A stretch of DNA of 58,635 nt from an uncultured Bifidobacteriaceae bacterium (lineage in GTDB: Bacteria; Actinomycetota; Acidimicrobiia; IMCC26256; PALSA-555): contig CAZKTS010000114.1 of NCBI GenBank assembly GCA_964555735.1, forward strand, positions 1-58,635, written 5' to 3'. The position numbers and the translations under genes are program-made. Position 1 is the stretch's first letter, and each line of letters opens with the position of its first letter. Positions 14,767-40,120 of the stretch are shown one piece after another. The notes beneath the pieces are model-generated. The model was not told the DNA's origin and did no database searches. It saw only the letters and a list, made by a program, of their open reading frames with translations.

Positions 14767-16302
14767 TCACGCGTCGGCCGCGTACACCTGCTCGCCCGCG
14801 CGCCAGGTCTCGCTGACCGCCAGGCCGCCGTCGGGCGCGCGGTCCAGCACCACGAGGTCGGCCACGAGGCCGGGCACGAGGCGGCCGCGCTCGTCTTCCT
14901 GTCCGCCGGCGAAGGCCGCACCCGCGGTGTAGGCGTGCAGCCAGGACTCGATGTCGACGGCCTGCTCGGGCTCGAAGCGCAGGCCGGTCGACGTCGTGCG
15001 GGATGCGCCGAGCGCGGCGCCCCAGAGCGGCGCGACCGGCGCGCAGGGTTCATCGCTCGAGCCGGCGAGGGTGACCCCGGCATCGGCGAGCCCTGCGAAC
15101 GCGAGCCAGTGGTGGTCGTCGAAGCGGACGCCGCCGGACGACTCGCCGACGTGCTCCACGAAGCCCGGCTGCACGACCGCGACGGCGTCGAGCGCGGCGA
15201 GGCGCGTCCACTGGTCCGCGCTGGTCACGCCCGCGTGCTCGACGCGGAAGCGGTGGTCGGCGTCCGCGCGACCGCGCACGGCGTCGAACGCCGCGAGGGT
15301 GTGCTCGACCCCCGCGTTGCCGATCGCGTGCACGGCGATGCGGAAGCCCGCGTCGACGGCGCGGGTCGCGCAGTCCTCGAGGTCGTGCATGAGGAGGCCG
15401 TAGCGGATCGCGTGACCCGAGACCGTGGTGTCGAGGGCGATCGCGATCCCGCCGTCGGCGAAGAGCTTCATCGCGCCGACCCGGAGCTGCTCGTCGCCGT
15501 CGCCGGTGCGGGGGCCGTCGAGCCGGGCGGCGTGGTCGTTGACGAGGATCGCCGCCGGGTGGGGCATCGCGACCACAGACACCGGAAGGTCGCCACTCGA
15601 CGCGAGCTGCGCGTACACGGCCTCGGCGTCCGGCGAGCATGCGGCGTCGTGGACCGCGGTGATGCCGTGGCGCCAGAGCGCGCGTCCGTGCGCGGCGACG
15701 TGCTCGGCCCAGCGGTCGGGGTCGGCGTACGCGGCGAGGGAGCGGGCGTGCGCCTCGCTCCACGCGCGCTCGAGGAGCAGCCCGTTCGGCTCACCGTCGG
15801 GAGCGCGGAGGATCTCGCCGCCGTCGGGGTCCGGTGTGCCGCGGCCGATGCCCAGATCGTCGAGCGCGGCGGAGCTCACCACCGCCTGGTGCAGGGAGTA
15901 GTGGGTGACCACGACGGGGCGGTCCAAGCCGACGGCGTCGAGGTCGGCGCGGGTGGGCGTGTACCCGTTGCCGGCCTCGTTCCAGTCGTGGAGCCGGACC
16001 CAGCCCGTCTCGGTGTCGATCGCGGCCTGGCGTCGGATCGCGTCCGCGAGCGCATCGGGGCCGTCGACGCCGGACGCGTCGCCCCACATCGGGTGCAGGG
16101 CGGAGACCGAGAGGTGGTTGTGGGCGTCGATGAACGCCGGCGCCAGCGTGCGCCCGGCGAGGTCGACGACCGTCGCCTCGGGGTATCTCGCGCCGAGGTC
16201 GCGTCCGCCGACCGCGGCGATCCGTCCGCCGTCGACGACGACCGCCTCGGCACGCGTGCCGTCCATGGTGGCCACGGGACCGCCGGAGAAGAGGATGGGC
16301 AC
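14767..16302 (-). CDS. amidohydrolase family 3 (YtcJ-like)
   Basis: PAFIDAHNH, KLFADGG, HAIGN, RVEHA, GSSDEP, LVPGLVADLVVLD. Confidence 0.9.
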   Translation of the reverse strand: MPILFSGGPVATMDGTRAEAVVVDGGRIAAVGGRDLGARYPEATVVDLAGRTLAPAFIDAHNHLSVSALHPMWGDASGVDGPDALADAIRRQAAIDTETGWVRLHDWNEAGNGYTPTRADLDAVGLDRPVVVTHYSLHQAVVSSAALDDLGIGRGTPDPDGGEILRAPDGEPNGLLLERAWSEAHARSLAAYADPDRWAEHVAAHGRALWRHGITAVHDAACSPDAEAVYAQLASSGDLPVSVVAMPHPAAILVNDHAARLDGPRTGDGDEQLRVGAMKLFADGGIAIALDTTVSGHAIRYGLLMHDLEDCATRAVDAGFRIAVHAIGNAGVEHTLAAFDAVRGRADADHRFRVEHAGVTSADQWTRLAALDAVAVVQPGFVEHVGESSGGVRFDDHHWLAFAGLADAGVTLAGSSDEPCAPVAPLWGAALGASRTTSTGLRFEPEQAVDIESWLHAYTAGAAFAGGQEDERGRLVPGLVADLVVLDRAPDGGLAVSETWRAGEQVYAADA

Positions 16303-16326
16303 GGCGAGACCGTACCGTCCGGCCTC

Positions 16327-17958
16327 CTAGGCGCGGTCGACGAGCGCGTGCTCGTACGCGAACGCGGTCGCCGCGGCGCGGGACGTCACGTCGATCTTCG
16401 TGAAGATGTTGGACAGGTGCCGCGAGACCGTCTTCACGCTGAGGTGGAGCGAGGCGGCAATCTCCTTGTTCGACTGTCCGGCAGCGACGAGACGCAGCAC
16501 CTCGACCTCGCGCGTGGTGAGCCCGGCCGGGAGCGGGGCATGATCGGCGACGTCTACCCCGCGCGCGTCGAGCCGCGCACCGATCTCGTCGAACAGGGAC
16601 CGGGCGGCGGCGAACGCGACCTGCGCGCCTTCGTCGTCGCCGGACTCACGGAGGGCATGACCGAGCAGCGTGCGCGTGGTCGCAACCTCGTACGGCACCT
16701 CGAGCTCCTGCCATCGGCGCAGCGCGTCGCGCAGGGTGGCGACGGCAGCGGTCACGTCACCGCCCGCCAGCTCGACGCGGCCTCGTGCCAGTGTCGCCAT
16801 CGCGTGCAGCATCGGCGTGTCGTAGTCCGCTGCGGTCGCGGTCAGCTCGTCGAGCGCAGCACGCGCGCGAGGCGTGTCGCTCGCGGCGACGGCGACCTGG
16901 ACGGCGGCGGGCAGCATCCGGGCCCGGGCGAGACGGTTCGCGGGCTGGTCCGCGGTGCAGTCACCGATGATCCGCGCCGCGGCGTCGACGCGCCCCTGCG
17001 CGAGGCGCAGGAGTGCGATCCCGTCGCAGACCCGGCCCGACAGCTCCTCGGCGCGGGCGAACGCCTCCTCGGCGCGCGTGAGGTCGCCGAGTCGGCGACG
17101 GATGTCACCCACCTCGGCGAACGCCGCCGCCGCGTTCGGCAGGTGGCTCGCCACCAGCTCGTCGCACGCCTTGGTTGCCTCCCGCTCGGCGTCCTCGAGC
17201 GCGCCCCGACGACTGAGCACGCCGGCGCGGTGGATCCGGCAGATCCCGGGGAAGATCGCGAACGGGTGCTGCTCGGCCCACTGCATGGTGGCCTCGGTCC
17301 ACTCCGCGGCACGGCGGAGGTCGCCGATGTCCTCGCACGCGCTGATCAGGCTGCAGTACACCTTGCCGGTCGAGTACGGGCTGAGGCGCCCCTCGATCGC
17401 GAACAGCATCGCTTCGTCGAGGTGCGCGAACCCTTGGTCGATCCGGCCGTCGTCGATCTGCACGCGCCCGATGGTCTGGAGCGCCTCGGCCTCGAGGTCG
17501 GCCGAGCGGAGCTCGCGCCCGAGTGCGAGCGCGCGCTCGGCGAGCTGCGCGGCGTCATCGAGGCGCCCACCCCCGTGGGCGAGCTCCGCCTCCCGCAGGA
17601 GGAGCGCGCCGTGCTCCGCGCACGCGGCATCCTCGTCGAGGACGCGCCGCGCCCGCTGCAGCCAGCCGGTCGCGACCGCAGGGCGAGCCCGCATGCCGTG
17701 GTGCTCGTACAGCCAGACCGCACACTGCCCGGCCCGGCGCGGCTCGTCGAGCTCCTCGAAGGCTCGGTACGCGCGCTGGCGCGCGTCGATGCAGTCGTCG
17801 AGCCGGCCGAGCCACCACGCCGCGTCCGCGCAGAGCTCGAGGCGCTCGGCCTCGGCGACCGGGTCGTCGACGCGCGCCGCGGTGGCGAGCGTGAGGCACT
17901 CGTCCCAGTCGCCGCGGCCGAGCGCGTCCCGCGCGCCGGTCAGTGGGTCAGCGACCAT
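16327..17958 (-). CDS. LuxR family regulator with TPR-like N-terminus
   Basis: C-terminal LTTREVEVLRLVAAGQSNKEIAASLHLSVKTVSRHLSNIFTK. Confidence 0.92.
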   Translation of the reverse strand: MVADPLTGARDALGRGDWDECLTLATAARVDDPVAEAERLELCADAAWWLGRLDDCIDARQRAYRAFEELDEPRRAGQCAVWLYEHHGMRARPAVATGWLQRARRVLDEDAACAEHGALLLREAELAHGGGRLDDAAQLAERALALGRELRSADLEAEALQTIGRVQIDDGRIDQGFAHLDEAMLFAIEGRLSPYSTGKVYCSLISACEDIGDLRRAAEWTEATMQWAEQHPFAIFPGICRIHRAGVLSRRGALEDAEREATKACDELVASHLPNAAAAFAEVGDIRRRLGDLTRAEEAFARAEELSGRVCDGIALLRLAQGRVDAAARIIGDCTADQPANRLARARMLPAAVQVAVAASDTPRARAALDELTATAADYDTPMLHAMATLARGRVELAGGDVTAAVATLRDALRRWQELEVPYEVATTRTLLGHALRESGDDEGAQVAFAAARSLFDEIGARLDARGVDVADHAPLPAGLTTREVEVLRLVAAGQSNKEIAASLHLSVKTVSRHLSNIFTKIDVTSRAAATAFAYEHALVDRA

Positions 17959-17973
17959 GCGTGCTCGCAGTGG

Positions 17974-18345
17974 TCAGCCGGCCGGCGACAGCTGCGCTCC
18001 CAGGTGCTCGAGCACTGGCGCGATGTCGGCGGCCGGGCTCATCTCGAGGAACGTTACGCCCTCGTGCGTCCAACCCGTGTGGCCACCGCGCCAGTAGAAC
18101 GTCTCGCCCGCGATCGTCGTCTCATCGGTGCCGTCGGCGTAGCGGACGGTGATGGAACCTTCGAGCACGATGCCCCAGTGCGGGCACTGGCACAGGTCGC
18201 CGGGCAGGCCGCGGAACAGGGGGGTGAAGTCGGTGCCGGCCGGCAGGTCGATGGAGCGGACGACCTGTCCGCCCCAGTCGACGCCGCGGGTCTCGATGTC
18301 GTTGACCTTCATCTCCAGGGGCAGATCCCCGAGTCGAGCGTGCAT
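17974..18345 (-). CDS. cupin domain protein
   Basis: CQCPHWGIVLEGSI...GETFYWRGGH cupin motifs; RBS AGAGGTGG before ATG 18345. Confidence 0.75.
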   Translation of the reverse strand: MHARLGDLPLEMKVNDIETRGVDWGGQVVRSIDLPAGTDFTPLFRGLPGDLCQCPHWGIVLEGSITVRYADGTDETTIAGETFYWRGGHTGWTHEGVTFLEMSPAADIAPVLEHLGAQLSPAG

Positions 18346-18642
18346 GGTGACCACCTCTTCTCTCATTTCCGGGACCGTCCCGGTCACCGGATCATCGACG
18401 GCGGTGGGCGTTGCCGCATCGGTCAGAACCAGCATTCCGGCATCGGTGGCGGTGCGCCCCGCGTGGGACGAACACCCCACGGGCCCCGTTCACGGATGGG
18501 GCGACCGTCCGATGCGCCGGGCGGCGCCACCCGAGACACTGGCAGCATGATCGAGCCGGACGTCGCCAATGCCCGTGTCGCCGAGCTGCTCGCGCTCGGC
18601 CGCGATCGCGAGGCGGCGGAGCTCGCGGACCGAGGAGGACCC

Positions 18643-19185
18643 ATGGATGTGCTGGATCAGCTGGATGAGCTCGGGCCCGTGCTCGGCGCGGTCGTCGCGG
18701 GGATCACCGAGGACCAGCTCGATGCGCCGACGCCGTGCGCAGACTTCACCGTGCGCGGCGTGCTCGAGCACATGGTCGGTGGTGCGACGACGTTCGCCGC
18801 GGCGTTCCGCGGGGTCGAGCCGCCGGCCGAGCCTGACTCCTCGGATGTGCTCGCGGCGTTCGGTCCGGCGCTGACCGGCCTGGTCGAGGCCATCCAGGCG
18901 CCAGGTGCGCTCGACCGCACCGTGCACGCACCGTTCGGTGAGCTGCCGGCCGAGTCGTTCGCCCGATTCGTCGTGCTGGACGGGCTCGTGCACGGCTGGG
19001 ACCTCGCGGTGGCGACCGGGCAGGCCTATGACCCCCCGGACGCGCTGGTCGCCGACGCAGCGACGTTCGCACAGGCGACGATCGACCCGATGCGTGATGG
19101 CAACACCTTCGCCGCCCCAGTCGAGCCGTCGCCGTCGGCCACCCCGATCGAGCGCCTCGCCGCCTTCACCGGCCGCAGCGTCTGA
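18643..19185 (+). CDS. TIGR03086-like / maleylpyruvate isomerase N-terminal (DinB-fold) protein
   Basis: LDAPTPCADFTVRGVLEHMVG, VHGWDLAVATGQ, IERLAAFTGR; RBS GAGGAGG before ATG 18643 (alternative in-frame ATG 18547). Confidence 0.88.
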   Translation: MDVLDQLDELGPVLGAVVAGITEDQLDAPTPCADFTVRGVLEHMVGGATTFAAAFRGVEPPAEPDSSDVLAAFGPALTGLVEAIQAPGALDRTVHAPFGELPAESFARFVVLDGLVHGWDLAVATGQAYDPPDALVADAATFAQATIDPMRDGNTFAAPVEPSPSATPIERLAAFTGRSV

Positions 19186-19235
19186 TCGCCCCGCTGTGAC
19201 GGGTCGCGTGATGCGCTGGTACTCTGGTCGCACGC

Positions 19236-19316
<81 letters not shown>

Positions 19317-19328
19317 AACAGCAGGTCA

Positions 19329-19352
19329 GGGCCGGTCTCTCGGGACCGGCCC
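19329..19352 (+). terminator. GC-rich hairpin downstream of the tRNA, probable terminator
   Basis: GGGCCGGTC-N6-GACCGGCCC; no long U-tract. Confidence 0.5.
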
Positions 19353-19370
19353 TCTGCGCGGGCAGACCGA

Positions 19371-19392
19371 CTTCTAACGGGTCCTCTAACGG
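19371..19392 (+). repeat. putative integrase arm-type sites (left)
   Basis: CTTCTAACGG-GT-CCTCTAACGG; the same tandem occurs at 39933-39954. Confidence 0.7.
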
Positions 19393-19494
19393 GCCAGTTT
19401 CAAACTCCGCTCGGCCGTACTTGTCCGAGAACCCGATGGTGCCAGATCGTGAAAATTGGGAGTGCTTGTCGCACCCTTGCTGTTACATGGACAC

Positions 19495-22400
19495 GTGCCG
19501 GATGCCGACGACGGGAAGCTCTTCGATCACCTCATCGAGGAGTTTGGTCATGCTGGGCGCAGTTCGGTCGAGTTCCTCAGGACGGCGGCGAGCTACCTCG
19601 AAGCAGCCGACCCCGCCACGCATCCGCGGGTCGCCGAGACCATCGCGTATTGCACGAGAGAAGCTCTCAAGCGGATCCTCGACACCGTTGAAACGCCGCC
19701 CGGGGGGACACTGGGATCCGCCTCGCGAAGCGTTGTCGCCGCTCGTGATCGCTATCTGATCGCGCAAGGACTGCCAGGGGCCGATGAGGCTGGTGCGCTC
19801 GACGATCTCCTTCGTGCCATCGATGAGCTTGAAGAAGGCCGACAACAAGAAGGCGTCCACCAGCGCCGACTGATCGCGGTACTGGTTAACAGAACCGGCG
19901 CGGTACCGCTGTCGGCAGCGTCCAACCCGATCAGCGAGTACCAGGAGCTGATCGAGCATCTCAACCGCATCGTGCATGAGCACGGGAGTCTCGACGAGGT
20001 ACAGGGCGCGTTCGAGCACGCGATCGCACTGATCCGTCGGCTCTTCGCACCTCCCGATGTTCGGATGGCAGAGCTCGACGCGCTCTCCGCTCTCGCAGCG
20101 CCGACGACTGCCGATGCCGACCGGCTACTGAGCTTGGTCTCGGCATCTAGCCACTTGGACTACTTCTTCCGAAACGCTGTGAGCCCGTCCTGGCTGACGC
20201 TGCTGTCGGACAGCGAGGTTCTGACGCCTCCCGATGGGCAAGCCAACTGGCCGGTGTTCCGCGCCGTCGAGAAGTTGGGTCCGACGCACGCCGACGAGGT
20301 TGGTGCCTGGCTAGATCACGCTTACGACAAGTGGGGTTCTTCGGCAACGCGCGCTTGGTATATCGCCCGCGCCGCGATTGACTTGGGACCTGCAGGTCAT
20401 GATGTGATGCTTCGTGCGCTGCGGGATTACCCGACCGAAGGATCGGTCAACTTCGTCGCTGCATGGGCGCTGGAGGAGGTCGATGCCGGTGACCGCGTCG
20501 TGGAGGCCGTCGCAGACCTTGCGCTCAATGCACTTAACGACTTCTCGGTGACGGGACATCTCAAGACGCTCATCGACAAGCTCGGTTCAGGTGTCAGCGC
20601 TGACAATTGGCGCGACAGGGTTCGTCTCCTTGCCTTCAAGATCCGGGCCGTCCCTGAGGATGATCCCGGTCGAAGAATCCGTCTCTACGAACGCGCCGGC
20701 TCGATCGCCGAGCCAGTTGACGCGTATGACGACCGACGGTTCGCTGTCCTTCTCGGGGGCCTAACTGAGGTGTTGACGCGTGCCGTCGGATTGGGTGTGT
20801 CGTTCGACGATCTCCTCGAGTCGATCGCGGATCTCCCGCAGGACGTTCGGGATCGCCTCCGGCCGTGGATCCTGGGCCAAGCGCCGGACGTGAGTTCCTC
20901 ACGGTTGATCTCGGAGGTCGCCGACTTCGTCGCAACTCGGCACCCCTGCGGAGACGACCTCGCACTGATTGACCGCGTTATTGAGGATGCTGAGGAAGTC
21001 GAGTACGTCGGGCCGTGGAGAACCGCGCTCGGTCCCGCACCAACGCCGGAAATGATCGGTCCCGCGCTCGCCGAGCACACGGTTCCTGACGAATGGTTCG
21101 CGCGGCGGGAATGGTCTGCTGTCCTTCCATCGCCTTGCCCGAGCGAATGGGCGAAGGCCGGTGCCCTCATCGCCGCCGCGTACGGGCAGGCAACACGCGA
21201 GGCGCTCGAAAAGCGCTTCGACCGCGTCGAGTTCAGCACCGGCCGAAGTCCGTTTAGGGATGAAGAGTTGAAAGGGCTCACACCACGCGACGCCGCGATC
21301 ACGATCGCGAGGTGGAGGCCTGACCCATCAGACTGGCTCGTTAGCGCTGGCGAACTCGCGCGAACCCTTGAGCAGCTGGTCAAGGAGAATCCCGAGGCGT
21401 GGACCGAGTCACCACTCGACACGGTGAGCAGCCTGCGACACCCGACGTATATCGGTCGCTACTTCCGCGCGCTCTCCCAGGTTGATGGGGGCCTTGCCGC
21501 CCGAGCAGACGACTTGATCGAAGCGGTCGTCTTTTGCCGGAGCCACCCCTGGCAGCCGGAGGTGCTCGGCAGAGATGACTTCGACTACGACGCCGACTGG
21601 CGCCACGTTGATGCTGCAGGAGTCGATCTGATCAAGAAGCTCGCGAATTCGGATGCGGGCTTCGGCGACCGCATCGAACAAGCCTGGGCGGTGGCACTTG
21701 AAAGCGCGGCGGATCGATCAACGAGCTCGTCTCTGGTTTCCGATCGAGATCCGCTGGAAACAGCTTTCAACCGACCGTGCACGAGTGCGCTCGAAGCGGT
21801 CTTCGCCCTCATGGGATACGAGTATCGATCTTCGGGGACAGTGCGAGTGGACGCGCTTGCGCTCCTTGACACTGCACTCAGGCTTCCGGAATGGGATGGA
21901 GCTGAGCACCGGGCCGTGATCGCACCGCGGCTCGGTTTTCTTCTTCACATCGCGCCTGACTGGGTTGCAGAACGACAGGAGTTGCTCTTCGGATCGAGCG
22001 CGCCTGACGGACTGGGGCAGCAGACCGTCGACCTCGCGGTGAAGTGGGGTCGACCCCAGCCATGGGTCTTGGAGCACACCCGGGGTCAGGTCATCGATGC
22101 GGCTGCCCGCGATGTCGAGAACGCCATGAGCACGCTTCTCATCGGGATGCTGTGGGACGTTCCCGGCTACGACGTCGATTCAATCGTTGACCAACTGGTC
22201 AGTCGGCGCAGCGACCTGCTCTCGGCCGCAGGCGAAGCGCTGGGAAGGCTCTTGCGTCATGATGACGTGGAGCCGAAGCATGTTGAGCGGGGGGTCGAGT
22301 TCTGGCGTGGTGTCGTCTCTCGGAATGATCCGGACGCGATGTCCGGCTTTGGGTGGTGGGCCGAGGTGAAAACTCTCGACCGCGAGCGATGGGAGTTGCT

Positions 22401-22674
22401 CACGCTCGCAAGTGCCGAACTCGCTCATGGCCGCTTGGATTGGGCGCACGAAGTTGCCAAGCGCGCGGCGGATGAAGGCATCACGGAGACGGGCCTCGCG
22501 ATCCTGAATGAGCTTGTCCGCGGTCAGGTCGACGAATGGGATCGACTGCAGGTCATGCAGACGGCGCTAACAGCTCTCAGCGTCGCCGCTGAGGCCCACC
22601 GCGAGTCCGACGCCTTTGGGCGCCTTCGTACGTCACTGATTGAGCGCGGGTTCTTCGACGCACGCGACGTCTAG
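19495..22674 (+). CDS. large hypothetical protein: N-terminal HEPN-like/pPIWI-associated-nuclease-like domain plus long alpha-helical region
   Basis: ORF 19456-22674 with likely GTG start 19495. N-terminal IAYCTREAL and LNRIVH motifs; no Walker A/B seen. Family call is tentative. Confidence 0.55.
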   Translation: MPDADDGKLFDHLIEEFGHAGRSSVEFLRTAASYLEAADPATHPRVAETIAYCTREALKRILDTVETPPGGTLGSASRSVVAARDRYLIAQGLPGADEAGALDDLLRAIDELEEGRQQEGVHQRRLIAVLVNRTGAVPLSAASNPISEYQELIEHLNRIVHEHGSLDEVQGAFEHAIALIRRLFAPPDVRMAELDALSALAAPTTADADRLLSLVSASSHLDYFFRNAVSPSWLTLLSDSEVLTPPDGQANWPVFRAVEKLGPTHADEVGAWLDHAYDKWGSSATRAWYIARAAIDLGPAGHDVMLRALRDYPTEGSVNFVAAWALEEVDAGDRVVEAVADLALNALNDFSVTGHLKTLIDKLGSGVSADNWRDRVRLLAFKIRAVPEDDPGRRIRLYERAGSIAEPVDAYDDRRFAVLLGGLTEVLTRAVGLGVSFDDLLESIADLPQDVRDRLRPWILGQAPDVSSSRLISEVADFVATRHPCGDDLALIDRVIEDAEEVEYVGPWRTALGPAPTPEMIGPALAEHTVPDEWFARREWSAVLPSPCPSEWAKAGALIAAAYGQATREALEKRFDRVEFSTGRSPFRDEELKGLTPRDAAITIARWRPDPSDWLVSAGELARTLEQLVKENPEAWTESPLDTVSSLRHPTYIGRYFRALSQVDGGLAARADDLIEAVVFCRSHPWQPEVLGRDDFDYDADWRHVDAAGVDLIKKLANSDAGFGDRIEQAWAVALESAADRSTSSSLVSDRDPLETAFNRPCTSALEAVFALMGYEYRSSGTVRVDALALLDTALRLPEWDGAEHRAVIAPRLGFLLHIAPDWVAERQELLFGSSAPDGLGQQTVDLAVKWGRPQPWVLEHTRGQVIDAAARDVENAMSTLLIGMLWDVPGYDVDSIVDQLVSRRSDLLSAAGEALGRLLRHDDVEPKHVERGVEFWRGVVSRNDPDAMSGFGWWAEVKTLDRERWELLTLASAELAHGRLDWAHEVAKRAADEGITETGLAILNELVRGQVDEWDRLQVMQTALTALSVAAEAHRESDAFGRLRTSLIERGFFDARDV

Positions 22675-22710
22675 TTCAGCGCGGGCTGTCGGCATACCGA
22701 GCCGCCCGTC

Positions 22711-23703
22711 TCACTCGTCGTCTGAGATGTCGTCGTCATCGCCGGCGCCCTCCGGTAGCGGAGGTATTCCGCCCGTGGCAGCTATGGCCGCGCGCAGACG
22801 CGCCTGCGTGTCCTCGAACCACTCTTGGTACTCGAGCCATTCGTCACGATCGTCTACGGATTCGCCGCCGTTCCGCTTGATCCCAACCCGGCAGCCCTTT
22901 CGCGTCGGGAGATCGTCGAAGATCAGTGGCTCCCCAAACGCTTCCTCAATCTCCTTTTGTCGCGCGTCGAGAACCTGCCATCGCGCCAGGTTGACCGCTG
23001 GCTGTGCATGATGGAAGAAGAGCTCCGAGAGAAGGCCTTCCGTTCGAAATGAGACGCCGTACCGCGCCTTCCGCGCACCGGACGGCAGGTACAAGAAGTG
23101 CCTCGGTGGTGCCTTTCGGTTCGTCCACGATTGCTGCTTCACTCGCTCCAACCACTCAGTCCAGAACTCGAGATACATCTCCTCGCGCTCGGACGTCTCA
23201 GCCGTCGCCTTCTTGACGGCCTTGCCCCAATCGTTGGGCTTGACAACGACATCGAGAAGCGGAGCAACGAGTCCAGAAGGGGCGCCTTCGAGCGTGACCG
23301 CCTGCAACTCGACCCCGAAGAAGCGCGTCAGGGCATCGGTCCGCTGATTGAGCCAGTCGAGCGCGGCGCGGTGTTCGTCGCGGAACTGCTCCGCGATCCA
23401 TACGACGGTCGTGGGTTCAGTGCCGCCTGCATAGGTGAGAAGTTGTCCAAGGTGGCGATGATCTGTAGGACCAAACTGATTCTCAACTATCACGATCTCG
23501 TCAGCGGTTACGTCGCGGCCAACGAGATCCAGGCTGAAACCACCCACTTTGTGCTCGGCTGCCTCGAGTTCTAGGTCGATACCAAGTGCGTCGCCCAGCA
23601 CCTCGGCATTGGCGAGCAGCCACGGCGTGAAACTCGATGCCTCCATCGGCCAAACGTCGCGCACGGCGACGGGGAGCAGCCGCGAGAGTTTCGGTGAAGT
23701 CAT
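22711..23703 (-). CDS. DUF4268-domain protein with N-terminal NucS-like endonuclease-fold domain
   Basis: VRDVWPMEASSFTPWL, LDLVG...VIVENQFGPTDHRHLGQLLTYA, C-terminal YLEFWTEW...EIEEAFGEPL...RKGCRV. Confidence 0.8.
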   Translation of the reverse strand: MTSPKLSRLLPVAVRDVWPMEASSFTPWLLANAEVLGDALGIDLELEAAEHKVGGFSLDLVGRDVTADEIVIVENQFGPTDHRHLGQLLTYAGGTEPTTVVWIAEQFRDEHRAALDWLNQRTDALTRFFGVELQAVTLEGAPSGLVAPLLDVVVKPNDWGKAVKKATAETSEREEMYLEFWTEWLERVKQQSWTNRKAPPRHFLYLPSGARKARYGVSFRTEGLLSELFFHHAQPAVNLARWQVLDARQKEIEEAFGEPLIFDDLPTRKGCRVGIKRNGGESVDDRDEWLEYQEWFEDTQARLRAAIAATGGIPPLPEGAGDDDDISDDE

Positions 23704-23761
23704 AGTGGGACGCTATTCGGGTTGCTCGCTTGATGCCCGAGGAGTGCCCGCTTTCCGTGCG

Positions 23762-24916
23762 CTATCGCTCGAACACAGCGCGCGAGAACGCTGCGGCCGC
23801 GTCGGCTTGCATGCCGGGCAGCACGTGCTGATAGACGCTCATCGTGAACGCGGGGCTTGAGTGGCCGAGGCGTTCGCTGACGACCTTCACCGGGACGCCG
23901 GCTTGGAGCAGGATCGTCGCGTGGGTGTGGCGAAGATCGTGGAGTCGGATCCTGGGTAGCTCGCTCTTCGCGATGTGGCGTTCGAAGAGCTGGCTGAAGG
24001 AGTCGGGGTGAACCGGCGCCCCGTCGGGCTGCGCGAAGACGAGCGCTGACTCGTCCTCCCGACGGCCGACGAGGAGCTGCTCCTCGAGTTGTCGCTTTCG
24101 CCAGGTCCGGAGCACGGCGACGGTTCGCTCGTCGAGGTCGACGACGCGACGGCTGCTTTGGGTCTTCACGTCAGCGAGCTGGAGTTGGTACGCGATGTTG
24201 ACGAGTGCCTGTCGAACCGAGAGTCGCTGGCCTTCGAGATCAACGTCCTGCCACCGGAGCCCAAGCACTTCGCCGCGTCGCATGCCGGTGTTCGCTGCAA
24301 CGAACAGTGCGGGGTAGAGGCGATGGTCCGACACCTCGTCGAGGAACTGTCGGAGTTGCTCGGCGGTCCACGCCCGCATCTCGGGCTTCCGGGTGGCTGA
24401 CGGCTTCGGTGGGTCGGCGACATCCGCGACATTCCGAACCACGGTGCCCTTACGGTGAGCGTCGGACAGTGCCTTGCGCAGGATGCCGTGGATGTAGCGA
24501 ACTGACTTCGGAGCCAACCCGCCGCCGGCACCGTTGAGACGGCCGTCGCGGAGGAGATCCGCGTAGAAGCCGTCGAGGTCTTCGGCCGTCAGTCGCTGCA
24601 GCGGAATCGAGCCGATGCGCGGCACGACGTGGTTCTTGATGTTGCGCTCGTAAGAGTCGAACGTCGATGGTCGCAGTTGCGCCCGCTTGCTCGGTAGCCA
24701 CCGCTCGGTGAGGTAGTCGCCGAGCGTTGTCCGTTCGGGTGCCCGGTAGTCGCCATCGTGCTGGCGCTTGACCAAGTCTCCAAGGACACGCTCCGCCTCC
24801 TTGCGAGTCCCTCCGCCTGCGTACCAGCGGTGGCGAGGCTTTCGGGTCGCGGGATCGAGTCCCTCGTAGATGACCGCGTAGTACCGCTTGCCCTTCTTGG
24901 CGATGTGTCCGCGCAT
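23762..24916 (-). CDS. int: tyrosine recombinase / integrase
   Basis: TGMRRGEVLGL (R), HDLRHTHAT (H-x2-R), LGHSS (H), VYQHV (Y); N-terminal arm-binding-like segment. Confidence 0.96.
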   Translation of the reverse strand: MRGHIAKKGKRYYAVIYEGLDPATRKPRHRWYAGGGTRKEAERVLGDLVKRQHDGDYRAPERTTLGDYLTERWLPSKRAQLRPSTFDSYERNIKNHVVPRIGSIPLQRLTAEDLDGFYADLLRDGRLNGAGGGLAPKSVRYIHGILRKALSDAHRKGTVVRNVADVADPPKPSATRKPEMRAWTAEQLRQFLDEVSDHRLYPALFVAANTGMRRGEVLGLRWQDVDLEGQRLSVRQALVNIAYQLQLADVKTQSSRRVVDLDERTVAVLRTWRKRQLEEQLLVGRREDESALVFAQPDGAPVHPDSFSQLFERHIAKSELPRIRLHDLRHTHATILLQAGVPVKVVSERLGHSSPAFTMSVYQHVLPGMQADAAAAFSRAVFER

Positions 24917-25141
24917 GCCGCCTCCCGTGTGCCGGACCGTGCTGCCTGGTTCGCTCGCCGTTCGGTGTCGCTCGGTTCGCCGATCCCAGCGTTGCTGACA
25001 TCTCGGCGCGCTCCTCCAAGGACACGCTGCTGGTCAGTCAACTACCGAGGTGTGACGCCGGCCACCGCCGTTTCGCGTGTCGGATTCGTCGCTCTCGAGG
25101 TGCGTTGGGGTGGTGTCACGAGCGATGCCCGGGAGGCCCTG

Positions 25142-25489
25142 ATGTCCACGCCCCAGCCTGACAACACCGACTTCCTGACCGTGGAAGAGGCAGCGCGCGT
25201 GCTGCGTATCGGCCGCACCGCGGCATACGCCCTTGCACGCATCTGGCGCGAGACCGACGGTCGGGAGGGACTGCCGGTCGTCCCCTTCGGCCGCCTACTC
25301 CGGGTCCCGCGAGCTGCGCTGGAGGCGATCTCGGGCGCGCCGATCACGCCACCCGCGCCAACGAACGTGCCAGCGCAGGCCCGGGTCGAGTCGCGGGGGG
25401 AACCGCGGCTACCTGCGGGTCCACATCGAGGCCGTCATCGACGCACTCGACGCGTCGATCCCGATCAGGCCGTTCTCCCGCTCGACTGA
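25142..25489 (+). CDS. xis: excisionase-like HTH protein
   Basis: FLTVEEAARVLRIGRTAAY...FGRLLRVPRAAL; divergent from int; RBS GGAGG. Confidence 0.8.
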   Translation: MSTPQPDNTDFLTVEEAARVLRIGRTAAYALARIWRETDGREGLPVVPFGRLLRVPRAALEAISGAPITPPAPTNVPAQARVESRGEPRLPAGPHRGRHRRTRRVDPDQAVLPLD

Positions 25490-25543
25490 GCAGCACGATG
25501 CCTGTCCTCGCCGCGACCCGCCTGTCCTTTCCAACTGACGCAC

Positions 25544-25606
25544 TTGCACCTGGGGTGCGGGGTGTCATTCCGCGCGTCCTCGGGAGTGTCCTCGCGTACG
25601 CGAGGA
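25544..25606 (+). other. putative oriT
   Basis: Hairpin GCACC-TGG-GGTGC followed by GGGGTGTCATT resembles the R388 TrwC substrate as I recall it (GCGCACCGAAAGGTGCGTATTGTCT). A perfect 18-bp palindrome TCCTCGCGTACGCGAGGA lies at 25589-25606, immediately upstream of the relaxase. Confidence 0.6.
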
Positions 25607-25631
25607 GTCACAGAGGGAGTGGGGTGGGGAG

Positions 25632-28169
25632 TTGCTGAGTCTCGGGAAGCTCGCGCCGGGCCAGCAGGGCTACTACCTCGACACTGTCGCGCGCGGCGCG
25701 GAGGAGTACTACACGGGTGCGGGGGAGGCGCCGGGTCGATGGGTCGGCGCGGCTGCCGTCCGGCTCGGGCTCGAGGGCGAGGTCGACCCGCAGGCCCTTC
25801 ACTTGGTGCTGGAGCACCGTGACCCGCGAACAGGCGAGCCGCTCACTCGGGCGCAAGGGGCGGCCCGGGTCCCCGGATTTGATGCGACGTTCTGCGCGCC
25901 GAAGTCCGTCTCGCTCCTCTTCGCGATGGGCGATGAGCGTGTCTCACGAGAGGTCCGCGAGGCACACGATCTCGCGGTGGATCGGGCGCTCGGCGTGCTC
26001 GAAGGGGAGGCCGCTCGGGCGCGGCGGGGGAAGGGCGGCGTCGAGCAAGTCGCCGCCGACGGGTTCGTCGCCGCTGCGTTTCGGCATCGCACGTCTCGGG
26101 CCGGCGATCCGCAGCTGCACACCCATGTCGTGGTCGCGAACCTCGTCCACGCACCCGACGATGACCGCTGGTCAGCGCTCGATGCCCGGCCGTTCTACGC
26201 GTGGGCCAAGACCGTCGGCTACCTCTACGAGACCGAGCTGCGCACCGAGCTGACTCGCCGTCTCGGCGTCGCGTGGACCACGACCCGCAATGGGATCGCA
26301 GACGTCGCGGGTGTACCGGCGGAGGCGATCCGGGCGTTCTCGCAACGCCGCCAGGAGATCGAGCTGCACCTCGAACGCGTCGGGGAGAGCACTGCGCACG
26401 CGGCCCAGATCGCCGCCTACGCCACCCGCCGCACCAAGACGACCGAGCCGGAATGGAGCATCACGGAGTGGCACGAACGAGCAGCCCGGGCCGGGCTCGA
26501 CGACCAAGCCATCACGAACGTCCTCGGCATGGGCGCGACGGTCGAGCCACCCACCCCGGGTACTGACGTCGCGGATGCGCTGTTCTCTGCGCTCGCGAGT
26601 CCGGACGGGCTGACATCGAGCCACTCGACGTTCGGTCGCCGCGACGTCATCCGCGCTCTGTCTGAACGGTGCCCGCCCGGCACCACGATCGGTCATGTCG
26701 TCGCGCTGAGCGAAGCGTTCCTCGCCTCGCCGCACGTGATCGCCCTCGGCACCGGCAACGGGCTGACGACATCGGACGTGATCCGACGCAGCGATGGCCG
26801 CATCGTCGCGACCGGAACCGACCAAGCCCGCTGGACGACGCCCGAGCTCCTCGCGATCGAGGCCCGACTGGTCGAGAGCGCAGGCGACCGACGCAACGAC
26901 AACGTCGCGGTCGCGGACCGCGAGCAGACCTCGCGAGCCGTTCGGGCTCGCCCGTCACTCGGTCCCGAACAGGTCCAGCTCGTCCGACGGATCACATCGT
27001 CGGGCGCGGGCGTCGACATCGTCGAAGGCGCCGCCGGAACCGGCAAGACCTATGCGCTCGACGCTGCACGCGACGCTTGGGAAGGCTGCGGCCACCGAGT
27101 CCGCGGCTGCGCGCTCGCGGCTCGTGCTGCGGCCGGACTCGAGCGCGGCTCGGGGATCCCGTCCCAGACGATCCACCGTTTCCTTCGCCAGCTCGACAAC
27201 CCACGTGGCGACGCGCTGCGAGCCGGCGACGTGCTCATCGTCGACGAAGCCGCCATGGTCGGCACTCGGGTGCTCGCCCAACTCCTCGACCACGCGGAAG
27301 CCGCCCGAGCGAAGGTCGTCCTCGTCGGCGACCACCACCAGCTCCCCGCCATCGATGCCGGCGGCGCATTCGCTGGGCTTGCTCAACGACTCGACGCGAC
27401 ACGGCTCTACGACAACCGCCGCCAAGTCGAACCCTGGGAGCGCCGCGCCCTCGCTCGTCTCCGCGTCGGAGCCACCCAACGCGCCATCGCCGCCTACCAA
27501 GAGCACGGCCGAATCAAGGTCTCACCCACGCCCGACCTCGCCCGCGAGCGACTCGTCGAGGACTGGCTCGACGCCCGACGCGCCGGGCACGTCGTCACGA
27601 TGCTGGCCGCACACCGCAGTGACGTCGACGAGCTCAACCGCCTCGCTCGCGAACGACTCCACGCCACTGGATTGCTCCCACCAGACGAAGCCGTCATTGC
27701 CGACCGACCGTTCGCCGTCGGCGACGACGTCATTGCCACCCAGAACGACTACCGCCTCGACGTGCTCAACGGCACCCGCGGCGTCATCACCGCGTGCGAC
27801 TCGCTCCAGCAGGCGATGACGATCCGCACCGACGACGACCGCAGCGTCGATCTCCCCGCTGAGTACGTCGTGGACGGCAACCTCACCCATGCCTACGCGC
27901 TCACCTTGCACAAGGCCCAAGGCATCTCGGTAGGCGAAGCGTTCGTCCTTGGGACTGAGGGCCTCGATCGCGAGCACGCGTACTCCGCTGTCTCCCGAGG
28001 AGCCGACGGCAACTGGCTCTATCTCAGTGAGGAGACCATCCGCGCTGAAGACGGCCACGCGCCCGAGGTCGAACCGGATGCCATCGAGCGCCTGGAGGCC
28101 GGACTTGGGCGGTCCACGGCCGACGGGCTGGCCATCGACTTCGCCGAGAGCATCGGCCTCGAACTCTGA
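25632..28169 (+). CDS. mobF: MobF (TrwC/TraI-like) relaxase-helicase
   Basis: GYY...EEYY catalytic tyrosines, FDATFCAPKSVS, HRTSRAGDPQLHTH (HUH), GAAGTGKT Walker A, IVDEAAM, LVGDHHQL, HAYALTLHKAQG; TTG start. Confidence 0.95.
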   Translation: MLSLGKLAPGQQGYYLDTVARGAEEYYTGAGEAPGRWVGAAAVRLGLEGEVDPQALHLVLEHRDPRTGEPLTRAQGAARVPGFDATFCAPKSVSLLFAMGDERVSREVREAHDLAVDRALGVLEGEAARARRGKGGVEQVAADGFVAAAFRHRTSRAGDPQLHTHVVVANLVHAPDDDRWSALDARPFYAWAKTVGYLYETELRTELTRRLGVAWTTTRNGIADVAGVPAEAIRAFSQRRQEIELHLERVGESTAHAAQIAAYATRRTKTTEPEWSITEWHERAARAGLDDQAITNVLGMGATVEPPTPGTDVADALFSALASPDGLTSSHSTFGRRDVIRALSERCPPGTTIGHVVALSEAFLASPHVIALGTGNGLTTSDVIRRSDGRIVATGTDQARWTTPELLAIEARLVESAGDRRNDNVAVADREQTSRAVRARPSLGPEQVQLVRRITSSGAGVDIVEGAAGTGKTYALDAARDAWEGCGHRVRGCALAARAAAGLERGSGIPSQTIHRFLRQLDNPRGDALRAGDVLIVDEAAMVGTRVLAQLLDHAEAARAKVVLVGDHHQLPAIDAGGAFAGLAQRLDATRLYDNRRQVEPWERRALARLRVGATQRAIAAYQEHGRIKVSPTPDLARERLVEDWLDARRAGHVVTMLAAHRSDVDELNRLARERLHATGLLPPDEAVIADRPFAVGDDVIATQNDYRLDVLNGTRGVITACDSLQQAMTIRTDDDRSVDLPAEYVVDGNLTHAYALTLHKAQGISVGEAFVLGTEGLDREHAYSAVSRGADGNWLYLSEETIRAEDGHAPEVEPDAIERLEAGLGRSTADGLAIDFAESIGLEL

Positions 28170-28202
28170 ACACCAGACGGTGCAGCGAGCCGAGCCGCTC
28201 TG

Positions 28203-28248
28203 GTCACAGTCATTGTGACTTGACATCACAGACGTTGTGGTTCATAGT
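28203..28248 (+). promoter_or_regulatory. sigma70-type promoter with twin palindromic operators
   Basis: TTGACA (28220-28225), 17 bp, CATAGT (28243-28248); palindromes GTCACA-GTCAT-TGTGAC (28203-28219) and ATCACA-GACGT-TGTGGT (28225-28241). Confidence 0.7.
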
Positions 28249-28254
28249 CAAGCC

Positions 28255-28734
28255 ATGCGAACGCACTTTCCTCACCGATCGATTCACCTGGTGGACATCG
28301 AGAACCTGCTGGGCGACGCCCGCCCGGGTTCAGACGCAGCTGCTGCCTGCCGAGCGCAGTATGAAGACGTCGTGGGCCGAGGGGAGGCAGACCTTGTGGT
28401 CGTAGCGTGCAACCACGGTGCAGCCGTCGATGTCGGACTCACCTGGTCCAGTGCCAGGTTGGCCGTTCGATCGGGGCCGAGCGGCGCGGATCTCGCGCTG
28501 CTCGAAGTGATCGAGCGCGAGCAGATCGAGTCTCGGTTCGACCGAGTGGTGATCGCCTCCGGTGACGGCATCTTCGCCGACGCGGCAGCGGATCTAGCCG
28601 GCCAAGGTTTGCCAGTGACGGTTGTGTCCCGACGCGCTTCTCTCTCCCGGCGCCTGCGCCTCGCGGCAACGGACGTGACGTACTTTCCTGTGCCGGGACC
28701 GCCGGATTGCGGTGTCTTCGAGGCGGTCGCGTGA
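28255..28734 (+). CDS. NYN-domain (PIN-like) predicted ribonuclease
   Basis: HLVDIENL, GADLALL, VIASGDGIF, GLPVTVVS, LSRRLRLAA; start ATG 28255 (GTG 28237 also in frame). Confidence 0.8.
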   Translation: MRTHFPHRSIHLVDIENLLGDARPGSDAAAACRAQYEDVVGRGEADLVVVACNHGAAVDVGLTWSSARLAVRSGPSGADLALLEVIEREQIESRFDRVVIASGDGIFADAAADLAGQGLPVTVVSRRASLSRRLRLAATDVTYFPVPGPPDCGVFEAVA

Positions 28735-30305: not shown

Positions 30306-30892
30306 GCGAGCACTCCGTCCGCCTCTCCGAGGTTGCCGACGTCCTGCGCGGAACCGTTCCAGCAACCACGACGCCAGAGCCGACGGGCCCAAAGTTCTTC
30401 GGGCTCGCAGAACTCAGTGATCGCAGCCTCACCCAGGTGCGCTACCTCGACCCTGACATCGAGTTAGGTCGCGCGGTCTACCTGCAGACTGGTGACATCG
30501 CGGTCGCGCTACTCGGTCGACTCGGCGAGTCTGCTCTGGTCAGGGATGAGCGTGCCGGTTCTGTCCTGGGTCGTGAGTGTGCGGTGATCAGACTCCGGCC
30601 GCACGAGGAGGCGATCACGCCGCCTTGGCTCTACGCGTGGACTAGATCGAGCGCCTTCGACCATGTCGTCGCAACGAGCACCTCGGGTACGACGATGCCG
30701 CGTCTCTCGATTCGCGGCCTACGTGAGTGTTCAGTTCCGCTCACGGAACTCGACACGCAGCAACGGCTGGCGGACAGGCTGGGCAAGTTCGAAGATGCAC
30801 TTGAGCTGACTCAACACGTCACGATGAAGCTCGAGAGATTGCGCCAGATTGAGATCGACCTGACCTTCGATGCAACCGATTCGAAGGGGTAA
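30302..30892 (+). CDS. half-size HsdS-like specificity subunit (single TRD)
   Basis: VRLSEVADVLRG, LQTGDI, GTTMPRLS, SVPLTELDTQQRLA plus one coiled-coil; 196 aa; ATGA overlap. Confidence 0.8.
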   Translation: MSEHSVRLSEVADVLRGTVPATTTPEPTGPKFFGLAELSDRSLTQVRYLDPDIELGRAVYLQTGDIAVALLGRLGESALVRDERAGSVLGRECAVIRLRPHEEAITPPWLYAWTRSSAFDHVVATSTSGTTMPRLSIRGLRECSVPLTELDTQQRLADRLGKFEDALELTQHVTMKLERLRQIEIDLTFDATDSKG

Positions 30893-31002
30893 CGCAGTGC
30901 TCGCGTCGCCTGCCGCCCCCATTGCGGTTGACTCGATGACTATCACGCGCTTGCCCGGATGGGTGCCGGACGTCCCACCCACTGCATAACGTGGGGACCA
31001 GC

Positions 31003-36631: not shown

Positions 36632-36704
36632 GCAGAACCAAGCTGTTCAGCAGCGCCGGCGGGGTAGCCGAGCTGGCGGTCGCCGATCCCTGGGATTGCT
36701 CGTC

Positions 36705-38014: not shown

Positions 38015-38032
38015 TGCCGCTTGGTCGGCCCA

Positions 38033-38069
38033 TTGAGTTTGCGTATCACGCAAGGTATATTGCGTGATA
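38033..38069 (+). promoter_or_regulatory. leaderless sigma70-type promoter with perfect operator palindrome
   Basis: TTGAGT (38033-38038), 17 bp, TATATT (38056-38061); TATCACGCAA-N6-TTGCGTGATA (38044-38069) ends on the A of ATG 38069. Confidence 0.75.
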
Positions 38070-39907: not shown

Positions 39908-39932
39908 CTTGGCCGGAGCAGCCGGCGGAGGC

Positions 39933-39954
39933 CTTCTAACGGATCTTCTAACGG
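39933..39954 (+). repeat. putative integrase arm-type sites (right)
   Basis: CTTCTAACGG-AT-CTTCTAACGG. Confidence 0.7.
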
Positions 39955-40069
39955 ATGGTCCGGCATCGGGCGATACCCGCAGGTACGCGCCGAGAGGACG
40001 CAAACACGAAAGCCCAGGTCAGCGGCAGTATCCGACACAGCCCGACACCAGCCGCGATGGCCCGGCGAT

Positions 40070-40120
40070 GGCTCATAACCCGAAGGTCGTGGGTTCAAAT
40101 CCCACCCCCGCCACCATCGA
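40070..40120 (+). repeat. att core, right copy (duplicated tRNA-fMet 3' half)
   Basis: Identical to 19266-19316; no D-arm or acceptor 5' strand upstream. Confidence 0.95.

Follow-up and report, generated by a model that had tools for sequence, protein, structure and literature searches.

A 1,059-residue all-helical protein at the left end of a tRNA-Met island as a candidate Dsr1-type anti-phage factor

What does a protein of more than a thousand residues, lying immediately inside the attachment site of a mobile island and matching no curated family, do for the cell that carries it? The window (the whole stretch of DNA analysed, 58,635 nucleotides) holds such a gene next to tRNA-Met. A preliminary description had taken its product for a single-gene anti-phage factor made of a HEPN-like nuclease head and a helical scaffold. 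On the sequence evidence, an anti-phage function is our best reading, and the gene is treated here as a candidate for it. The nature of the head is a different matter.

Position of the gene in the island

The integration target, the ends of the island and the genes at its left end are located as follows.

19236..19312, plus strand: tRNA-Met (CAT), integration target of the island (ARAGORN; Rfam tRNA, 66 bits)
19266..19316, no strand: attL, left copy of an exact 51-nt direct repeat, comprising the 3' part of the tRNA and 4 nt
19495..22674, plus strand: the gene itself, from a GTG start to the stop at 22672-22674; its all-helical product of 1,059 aa belongs to an uncurated family of ~1,050-aa proteins
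22711..23703, minus strand: convergent neighbour, a DUF4268 protein of 330 aa (Pfam)
23762..24916, minus strand: tyrosine integrase of the island (Pfam Phage_integrase, 4e-28)
40070..40120, no strand: attR, second (right-hand) 51-nt repeat copy, where the island ends

The repeat search gave 100% identity between attL and attR at a spacing of 20,804, and the island is 20.8 kb long. The att core pattern occurs twice in the window, with 0 occurrences expected by chance. From the positions of the repeat it follows that the distance from attL to the start of the gene is 178 nt and that no other gene of the island comes before it, in agreement with the place given to it in the preliminary description. 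The possibility that attL and the integrase gene enclose a further, nested or tandem, island was rejected, as a third att copy is absent from the window. G+C content is 62–66% in the island and 70–75% in the flanks, and GC3 is 0.70 as compared to 0.85–0.95. The island is mobilisable, with a TrwC relaxase (Pfam), and its other cargo includes a type I R-M system and a HEPN-MNT pair. The gene would simply be cargo of the island beside these two systems.

Between attL and the integrase gene there are only this gene and the DUF4268 gene. The latter was considered as a component of the same system and rejected, since clustering of the neighbours at 20 loci showed that it is not kept beside the homologues. 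No other partner gene is conserved in these 20 loci either, which agrees with the earlier view of a stand-alone cargo gene.

The open frame extends from a TTG at 19456 to the stop at 22672-22674. Starting at GTG 19495 yields 1,059 aa and agrees with the N-termini of the homologues in the alignment. Compared to a homologue with 88% identity, dN/dS is 0.12 and roughly uniform over the length of the gene. This value together with thousands of full-length relatives makes it more than a chance ORF; the gene is under purifying selection and horizontally mobile. With a pI of 4.8 and a net charge of −6% of residues, the encoded protein is strongly acidic. The sequence of the gene was found in DNA metagenome runs only, and a promoter and terminator scan around it was uninformative.

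Architecture and family of the protein

The AlphaFold2 model of the whole protein is all-helical with a pLDDT of 87.1. The motif scan found neither Walker A nor GxGxxG in the window protein, and Pfam gave no AAA or NACHT match. The proposal of a helical body of about 850 aa without Walker motifs is thereby borne out. Model and conservation divide the chain into the following parts.

19495..20106, plus strand: N-terminal module of eight helices (residues 1-204), a candidate effector head with an unclassified fold
19645..19662, plus strand: motif AYCTRE, residues 51-56; family consensus AYC[LIV]REA
19960..19977, plus strand: motif LNRIVH, residues 156-161; family consensus L-N-x-[AG]-[LV]-H
20107..21210, plus strand: solenoid lobe 1, built of helical hairpins in a stack (residues 205-572)
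21211..21345, plus strand: non-helical break, residues 573-617, seen by DSSP and as lower pLDDT
21346..22671, plus strand: solenoid lobe 2, residues 618-1059

Two residues of the head stand out. Arginine 55 is present in 124 of the 128 members aligned, with gaps in the remaining four, and histidine 161 in all 128; the two are separated by about 100 residues in sequence. In lobe 1, F224, W233, R454, W540 and W552 are kept in at least 95% of members. The single break in the solenoid, near residues 573-617, includes the conserved S585-P586 and W607-R608-P609 and, judged from the model, may be a hinge between the two lobes. Lobe 2 contains D801-G-A-E-H-R806-A (21895-21915), the block with the highest conservation in the protein.

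When the full model was compared with the PDB by Foldseek, only generic HEAT/ARM/TPR solenoids were returned at TM 0.1–0.2, among them importins, CAND1 and condensin HEAT subunits. The viral BFVD gave nothing at E<1e-3.

The family comprises 2,109 cluster representatives (E<=1e-3). A length of about 1,050 aa is the rule among the best 150 relatives, and the shorter ones are partial matches. Hosts are mainly Actinomycetota and the family is common in Streptomyces, whose members include L009 and WP_331732783.1 (the latter from Streptomyces sp. NBC_00015, with an hhalign probability of 99.8%). The window protein itself has no match in Pfam (E<=1), NCBIfam, PADLOC (E<=1) or the PDB (sequence and profile), and the cluster look-up gave the name 'hypothetical protein' only. 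Two matches from the family searches were judged to be due to chance: one between family profile positions 779-893 and the N-terminus of Legionella RidL (E 0.003), the other between 2 of 33 diverse N-terminal domains and Pfam Alpha-E, described by a 'conserved ER motif' (E 0.011).

A profile of these 33 heads returned just 5 short fragments and no other head-bearing architecture, and when the 40 most divergent members were used as queries, 8 unnamed full-length relatives were added. No swapping of the effector was seen among the best 150 relatives and in the follow-up searches. All parts of the chain are conserved to a similar degree, with invariant Trp and Arg residues as well as the DGAEHRA block in the putative sensor. 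Taken together, even conservation and absence of effector swapping set this family apart from the usual fast-evolving sensor with exchangeable effectors.

Genomic contexts and relation to Dsr1 and Avs7

Defence genes were scored within 10 kb in 25 independent loci. The preliminary description had suggested looking for enrichment of homologues near defence genes; in keeping with such enrichment, recognised defence genes occur in 11 of the 25 contexts, a raw count from a small sample without a formal background rate. They are:

window: type I R-M, HEPN-MNT
L003: AbiEii, Mrr
L005: OLD nuclease, DUF1156, DUF499
L008: type ISP enzyme
L010: GmrSD immediately upstream
L011: Eco57I/MmeI methylase
L018: McrBC and a methylase-helicase giant
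L019: ApeA, OLD
L020: type I R-M, DarTG; the start of the homologue gene overlaps the hsdM stop
L026: Dnd
L029: NACHT protein

Three further contexts were graded probable for defence. Integrase, transposase, relaxase or plasmid genes are found in 12 of the 25, and about 5 lack both these and defence genes. The gene has a far lower GC3 than its neighbours in the host; in the Streptomyces locus L009, for instance, the values are 0.58 and ~0.9. A phage origin is rejected because neither 50,697 phage records nor IMG/VR contain a homologue. The family resides in defence islands and in integrative, conjugative or plasmid elements.

The preliminary description had also likened the protein to the C-terminal region of Avs proteins without their STAND NTPase. 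The absence of the NTPase is confirmed, and similarity to a protein of this type recurs in the family at a low level. Specifically, the PADLOC model PDLC04167 (Dsr1) is matched by 11 of 85 members, that is by 2 of 40 (best E 2e-4) and 9 of 45 (7e-4) in two sets, and a second Dsr1 model, PDLC04166, by 3 of 45. All of these matches are under any curated threshold, and in part they could reflect a helical-repeat composition that both sides have in common. Apart from the Dsr1 models, no PADLOC model was matched more than once. The likeness did not extend to the window protein, which has no PADLOC match at E<=1, Dsr1 models included; the AVAST models of PADLOC matched neither it nor the 85 members. 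Since a SIR2 or Rossmann part is missing from the family (Pfam found no SIR2 in the window protein and its model has no Rossmann-type strands), the similarity presumably lies in the sensor region of Dsr1.

Dsr1 carries an Avs7-type sensor without the STAND NTPase (PMC13581612). The Dsr1/Avs7 sensor binds by wrapping itself around the major capsid protein (HK97 fold) of the infecting phage. Recognition of the major capsid protein has been shown for SeAvs7 and EcDsr1 (2026 Nature; PMC13581612), and toxicity of the system is lost when the effector is disrupted (PMC13581612). The sensor also occurs in other NTPase-less proteins, including a 'HEPN-like' one of Streptomyces (NBC_00271), and the proteins listed with the Avs7 sensor number 9,097 (PMC13581612).

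Like Dsr1 (defence-associated sirtuin 1; EcDsr1, WP_029488749.1), the window protein is encoded by a single gene, has an N-terminal head and a large helical repeat, and lacks the STAND NTPase; both are found in defence islands and mobile elements, and members of the family have sub-threshold matches to both Dsr1 models. The heads are different: Dsr1 has a SIR2 NADase, and the window protein has a helical head of 200 aa with R55 and H161 and no database match. Avs7 has a long, TPR-like, bilobed and sharply bent capsid sensor with exchangeable N-terminal effectors, and some of its members are NTPase-less. The window solenoid is similar in size (about 850 aa), and its one break could part two lobes. 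Avs7 itself carries a STAND NTPase, whereas the window protein has no Walker A motif, and sensor homology between the two is indicated by the weak Dsr1 matches only.

DSR2 is another protein in which an effector head and a HEAT-like solenoid sensor are joined in one NTPase-less chain of about 1,000 aa. It consists of SIR2, MID and an alpha-solenoid C-terminal domain and senses the phage tail tube protein (PMC11850899, PMC11263360, PMC10981675). However, the family has no sequence or profile similarity to solved DSR2 chains, DSR2 is absent from the 50 best Foldseek matches of the window model, and the window protein has no SIR2.

The best explanation of these observations is an immune protein of the Dsr1 type that acts alone in the cytoplasm and joins an effector head at the N-terminus to a large helical-repeat sensor in one chain, without an NTPase; we consider that it has about an even chance of being correct. 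The solenoid would be distantly related to the Dsr1/Avs7 sensor. Once a phage protein is bound (capsid protein is the first candidate), the N-terminal heads would be released or assembled, and the head would then use R55 and H161 to perform a toxic reaction by which infection is aborted. For an Arg/His pair placed in a helical domain, the chemistry that suggests itself first would be metal-independent RNA cleavage. Several results speak against this explanation. In addition to the low level of the Dsr1 matches and their absence for the window protein, the family profiles found no solved Dsr, DSR2 or Avs structure by sequence, DSR2 was absent from the 50 best Foldseek matches, Foldseek and Pfam recognised no catalytic fold in the head, the conservation is even and no effector swapping was seen in the searches described above, and about 5 of the 25 contexts are devoid of both defence and mobile genes.

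If the Dsr1-type explanation is true, the capsid-sensing Dsr1/Avs7 receptors have in this family a major branch without an NTPase. It comprises more than 2,000 sequence clusters, and most of these come from Actinomycetota, a group in which defence systems have seldom been tested. As a system of one gene, the family would be a simple means of studying how a helical-repeat sensor activates an effector without an NTPase, and what chemistry is performed by the R55/H161 head, which matches no curated family. It would also add to the defence catalogues an unannotated gene missed by PADLOC, Pfam and NCBIfam. Surprise is limited by the fact that the concept, including the Streptomyces 'HEPN-like' example, was already published in 2026 (PMC13581612).

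Alternative readings of the head and of the gene

A further reading takes the head to be a new effector module of eight helices with a split Arg55/His161 site, not a HEPN domain, permanently joined to a Dsr1/Avs7-type sensor. We regard this as possible but tentative. If it is true, the family represents an immune receptor that is very widespread in actinobacteria and had not been characterised before. The even conservation and the invariant Trp and Arg residues of the putative sensor could then mean that it binds a conserved ligand other than capsid, or that there is a second active site at DGAEHRA.

The same conservation also fits a solenoid without any enzymatic activity, which would block or sequester a phage or plasmid component or serve as a scaffold for neighbouring restriction systems; R55 and H161 would then be structural or ligand-binding residues. 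The chain is conserved as a single unit from end to end, swapping of effectors was not seen, the Foldseek matches are to adaptor- and transport-type solenoids only, and the protein is acidic. As to restriction, hsdM or its remnants lie near the gene in 3 loci, and in L020 the gene overlaps hsdM. But type I R-M is the commonest neighbour of any defence-island gene, and neither a restriction gene nor another partner is conserved across the loci. Moreover, an invariant Arg and His in an otherwise variable head are more typical of catalysis. We consider a non-enzymatic role unlikely.

The preliminary description had read AYCTRE and LNRIVH as signature motifs of a HEPN or HEPN-like RNase effector in the N-terminal 200 aa. 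The common HEPN signature is R-N-x-x-x-H. The invariant H161 lies in L-N-x-[AG]-[LV]-H, which resembles the N-x-x-x-H half of it, R55 is likewise kept in all aligned members, and the modelled head is all-helical. These traits and the defence-island setting are shared with HEPN RNases (ApeA, HEPN-MNT toxins, Csm6/Csx1 and the HEPN lobes of Cas13). In addition, the head of the Streptomyces protein with a Dsr1/Avs7 sensor is termed 'HEPN-like' (PMC13581612), and that protein may belong to the family of the window protein.

However, the defining Rx4-6H arrangement is not conserved. Position 156, where the arginine of Rx4H should be, is L, A or V in 108 of 128 members and S, I or C in most others, and is never R. 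There is an arginine at position 155 in 41 of 128 and at position 154 in 22 of 128, so that at most about half of the family has one 4–6 residues ahead of H161. The arginine within LNRIVH is not conserved in the family, and the Rx4-6H strings that the window protein does contain (R116-H122, R158-H163 and others) are at non-conserved positions. Pfam HEPN families matched neither the protein (E<=1) nor the 33 diverse N-terminal domains (E<=10). The proposed Foldseek search of the N-terminal ~200 aa for a nuclease-like fold (head model, residues 1-204, pLDDT 79) reached a best E of 0.22 against the PDB, which is rich in HEPN structures; the matches were TetR, 14-3-3 and BAR-type bundles, and HEPN structures were absent among the 50 best. 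By hhalign, the head profile had a probability of 0.1% against both the HEPN protein of the island and an ApeA. The resemblance to pPIWI-associated nucleases that had also been suggested led to no link. We therefore consider a HEPN head improbable, and the motif assignment made earlier is not supported. A catalytic head is nevertheless possible because R55 and H161 are kept in all aligned members, but it is not one shown as HEPN.

Least probable of all is that the gene is a fitness factor of mobile elements (anti-restriction, exclusion) or a cellular gene riding in variable regions, with no anti-phage role: about half of the contexts have integrase, transposase, relaxase or plasmid replication genes, the island of the window is mobilisable, the protein is acidic and five contexts have no defence gene, but known anti-defence proteins are mostly small compared to 1,059 aa, phage records and IMG/VR hold no copies, the loci L003, L005, L010 and L020 are chromosomal defence clusters without nearby mobility genes, and the recurrent Dsr1 matches favour immunity.

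The island and its first gene

The candidate gene lies in an island of 20.8 kb bounded by an exact 51-nt direct repeat (attL/attR), of which the window holds no third copy. G+C content of the island is 62–66% as compared to 70–75% outside, and its GC3 is also lower.

Features of the island from left to right (gene assignments by Pfam)
19236-19312, tRNA-Met gene
19266-19316 and 40070-40120, direct repeat, attL and attR
19495-22674, plus strand, candidate defence gene, 1,059 aa; GTG start at 19495, uninterrupted reading frame from TTG 19456 up to a stop codon at 22672-22674
22711-23703, minus strand, DUF4268 protein, 330 aa; domain C-terminal, N-terminal half unannotated
tyrosine integrase, minus strand
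HTH_17 protein, plus strand
25632-28169, TrwC relaxase-helicase
28237-28734, small NYN-like protein
28707-30892, N6 methylase with half-size S subunit
30991-33822, hsdR of a complete type I R-M system
33819-35153, hsdS of the same system
35150-36631, hsdM of the same system
two unknown proteins, one of them DUF7662
38021-39141, nucleotidyltransferase-HEPN pair
39138-40003, minus strand, DUF429 gene split into two overlapping ORFs (39290-40003 and 39138-39545)
24758-40120, mobilisable remainder of the island as a whole

With this gene content the island is therefore a mobilisable integrative element bearing defence cargo. The long ORF is indeed placed directly inside the left att site, as had been proposed: it is the island's first gene and starts 178 nt inward of attL. 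Its GTG start agrees with the N-termini of aligned relatives. Comparison with an 88%-identical homologue from another genomic setting (L013) gives a dN/dS of 0.12 for the whole gene and of 0.10–0.18 in each segment; by this measure it is therefore a functional gene, constrained over its full length. The DUF4268 gene is convergent with it, with 36 nt in between, and both occupy an unusual spot between attL and the integrase. The split DUF429 gene adjoining attR is probably a frameshifted pseudogene; an intact DUF429 gene is also found near one homologue (L016).

The sequence comes from a bioreactor or activated-sludge metagenome. Comparison of window positions 17800-23800 with two sludge metagenome runs, X3 and X5, revealed a 98%-identical variant contig in both, with 86–88 substitutions over ~4.5 kb. 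The variant begins in the same tRNA-Met and spans the candidate and DUF4268 genes, and the pair is linked there too. The left flank of the window (17800-19200) has almost no depth in X3 and X5, which suggests that the island sits there in a different host background and fits an element moving between hosts.

A family of single genes in defence and mobile contexts

A word-indexed search returned only 23 relatives, each ~1,050 aa long, with neither a name nor a Pfam domain. An exhaustive profile search brought in 2,109 cluster representatives at E<=1e-3, 431 of them at E<=1e-30. The best 150 of the 2,109 are mostly full-length (~1,050 aa), the shorter ones being partial matches. No member tested carries a Pfam, NCBIfam or source name; this is a large family missed by all curated libraries. 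Genome matches are mainly in Actinomycetota (Acidimicrobiia, Streptomyces, Pseudonocardiaceae, Phytoactinopolyspora), with one Dehalococcoidia MAG and one MAG labelled Spirochaetia. Distant members reside on Streptomyces linear plasmids, among them WP_331732783.1 (1,093 aa; 999 aligned columns, hhalign probability 99.8%). Neither 50,697 phage records nor IMG/VR contained a copy. Four of the 12 genome loci hold disrupted copies: frameshifted in L004 and L007, lacking ~220 internal residues and frameshifted in L011, and reduced to a 228-residue fragment in L012. These reflect either frequent gene decay or MAG assembly error. One homologous protein, P0007 (1,350 aa), has a 300-aa upstream extension in which a ribbon-helix-helix-like stretch was recognised only by eye (...VTLRVTPELRDQAERLAGERGTTVSRLAREALEQLL); the gene caller probably fused a small, separate upstream gene to this homologue.

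No neighbour gene is conserved across 20 loci, integrase, hsdM and DUF5131 recurring three times each, and the unit is therefore a single gene. We counted defence genes within 10 kb in 25 independent contexts, a small sample taken without a formal background rate, and recognised them in 11.

Defence genes within 10 kb of the gene or its homologues
Window: type I R-M, HEPN-MNT
L003: AbiEii, Mrr
L005: OLD nuclease, DUF1156, DUF499
L008: type ISP enzyme
L010: GmrSD
L011: Eco57I/MmeI methylase
L018: McrBC, methylase-helicase giant
L019: ApeA, OLD
L020: type I R-M with embedded DarTG; hsdM stop overlapped by the homologue start
L026: Dnd
L029: NACHT protein

Three additional defence contexts (L007, L023 and L027) are probable. 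Integrases, transposases, relaxases or plasmid genes occur in 12 of the 25 contexts, about five have neither defence nor mobile genes, and in several hosts the gene stands out from its neighbours by a far lower GC3. Over these 25 contexts, with no formal background, the pattern is that of a horizontally traded defence-island gene. At L020 (1-13153) cargo is found within the type I R-M operon, in the order hsdR, hsdS, M78 peptidase, DUF5131, an unknown gene, DarT, a Macro-domain protein (DarG), DUF433, hsdM and the homologue. At L007 an hsdM remnant and DUF5131 lie upstream of the frameshifted homologue.

Predicted structure and weak likeness to Dsr1

AlphaFold2 with the family alignment gives a confident, all-helical model (pLDDT 87.1, pTM 0.66): eight helices in the first ~200 residues, then a long run of helical hairpins interrupted once, by the non-helical, lower-confidence residues 573-617. 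Foldseek matches the full model in the PDB only to generic HEAT/ARM/TPR solenoids (importins, CAND1, condensin HEAT subunits, Ski3, Ctr9; E 1e-5 to 1e-3, TM 0.1–0.2), and to nothing significant in a viral structure library. A motif scan of the protein found no Walker A or GxGxxG. The preliminary description of a helical solenoid without an NTPase is therefore right. With the best-conserved block of the family (profile positions 779-893, window residues ~775-890) the N-terminal domain of the Legionella effector RidL (5wyh, 5osh) is weakly matched at E 0.003, probably by chance between helical proteins. An alignment of 128 full-length members with identity down to 25% has just 17 positions with conservation of 95% or more. 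Two of them, R55 and H161, fall in the head (residues 1-204), and this family-wide Arg/His pair suggests a candidate catalytic or ligand-binding site.

The window protein matched no PADLOC model. Scanned singly, 2 of 40 members matched PDLC04167, a model of defence-associated sirtuin 1 (Dsr1), at best E 2e-4; in an independent set of 45, nine members matched this model (best E 7e-4) and three a second Dsr1 model. All these matches are sub-threshold, and no other model was matched more than once. The family lacks any SIR2 or Rossmann part, so that the likeness can only reside in the non-SIR2 region of Dsr1. That region is an Avs7-type sensor, a bilobed, sharply bent TPR array; phage major capsid protein triggers both SeAvs7 and EcDsr1, and toxicity is lost on effector disruption (2026 Nature, PMC13581612; preprint PMC12803255). 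These profile matches suggest a weak but specific homology of the putative sensor to Dsr1 and Avs7. DSR2 is an architectural analogue only, with no similarity to the family detectable in sequence or profile searches. The principle in general, and with it a 'HEPN-like' example from Streptomyces, is already published (PMC13581612), which moderates the novelty of a function predicted here from sequence, model and context; the present family may be the group to which this example belongs, or one sister to it.

We consider it an even chance that the protein is a Dsr1-type single-chain receptor, in which a sensor of the Dsr1/Avs7 type is joined to an unclassified head and an NTPase is absent. We infer its trigger, division of labour and chemistry as follows. 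The solenoid, which may consist of two lobes with a hinge at residues 573-617, would bind a phage protein, the capsid protein being the first candidate. Binding would free or assemble the heads, and the R55/H161 site would then do damage, most simply RNA cleavage, aborting infection. Against the Dsr1-type receptor stand the sub-threshold matches with their unmapped region and the absence of effector swapping in the family. Moreover, the putative sensor is as conserved as the head, with invariant Trp and Arg residues and a DGAEHRA block, which is unusual in a phage-facing sensor. Conservation this even would also be compatible with a protein that only binds, or with a second active site. That the protein is an accessory or a binder with no enzymatic activity seems unlikely beside the family-wide Arg/His pair.

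A true HEPN head is quite unlikely. The usual HEPN signature is R-N-x-x-x-H, and the context of H161, L-N-x-[AG]-[LV]-H, recalls its second half. The AYCTRE and LNRIVH motifs noted earlier are found where they had been placed, at residues 51-56 and 156-161. However, position 156, that of the HEPN arginine, is L, A or V in 108 of the 128 members and R in none, and an R 4–6 residues upstream of H161 is present in at most about half; the defining sequence feature of HEPN is therefore lacking. The R of LNRIVH, at −3 to H161, is not conserved, and R55 lies ~100 residues from H161 on another helix. Pfam HEPN families are matched neither by the protein nor by any of 33 diverse heads, each scanned on its own at E<=10. 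Aligned by hhalign with the island's own HEPN protein and with an ApeA, the head profile reaches a probability of 0.1%, and the head modelled alone (pLDDT 79) has no PDB match by Foldseek (best E 0.22). Of the preliminary description, the architecture and the defence candidacy hold and the HEPN assignment does not. That the gene serves the mobile element in some way unrelated to immunity is also quite unlikely.

The window outside the island

A cobalamin riboswitch (Rfam RF00174, 45 bits) at 733-860 on the plus strand lies within the mechanically listed ORF 132-2483, the 5' part of which is therefore probably non-coding. By its codon-position G+C pattern one long ORF left of attL was rejected as a spurious high-GC shadow of real genes.

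Shadow ORF and underlying genes
14935-19185, plus strand, rejected ORF of 1,416 aa
14767-16302, minus strand, amidohydrolase
16327-17958, minus strand, LuxR/TPR regulator

Just beyond attR, long runs of GCC/GCG-type triplet repeats (40760-44113, minus strand; 36 loosely related copies in two blocks) fall in ORFs of that strand whose predicted products are rich in glycine.
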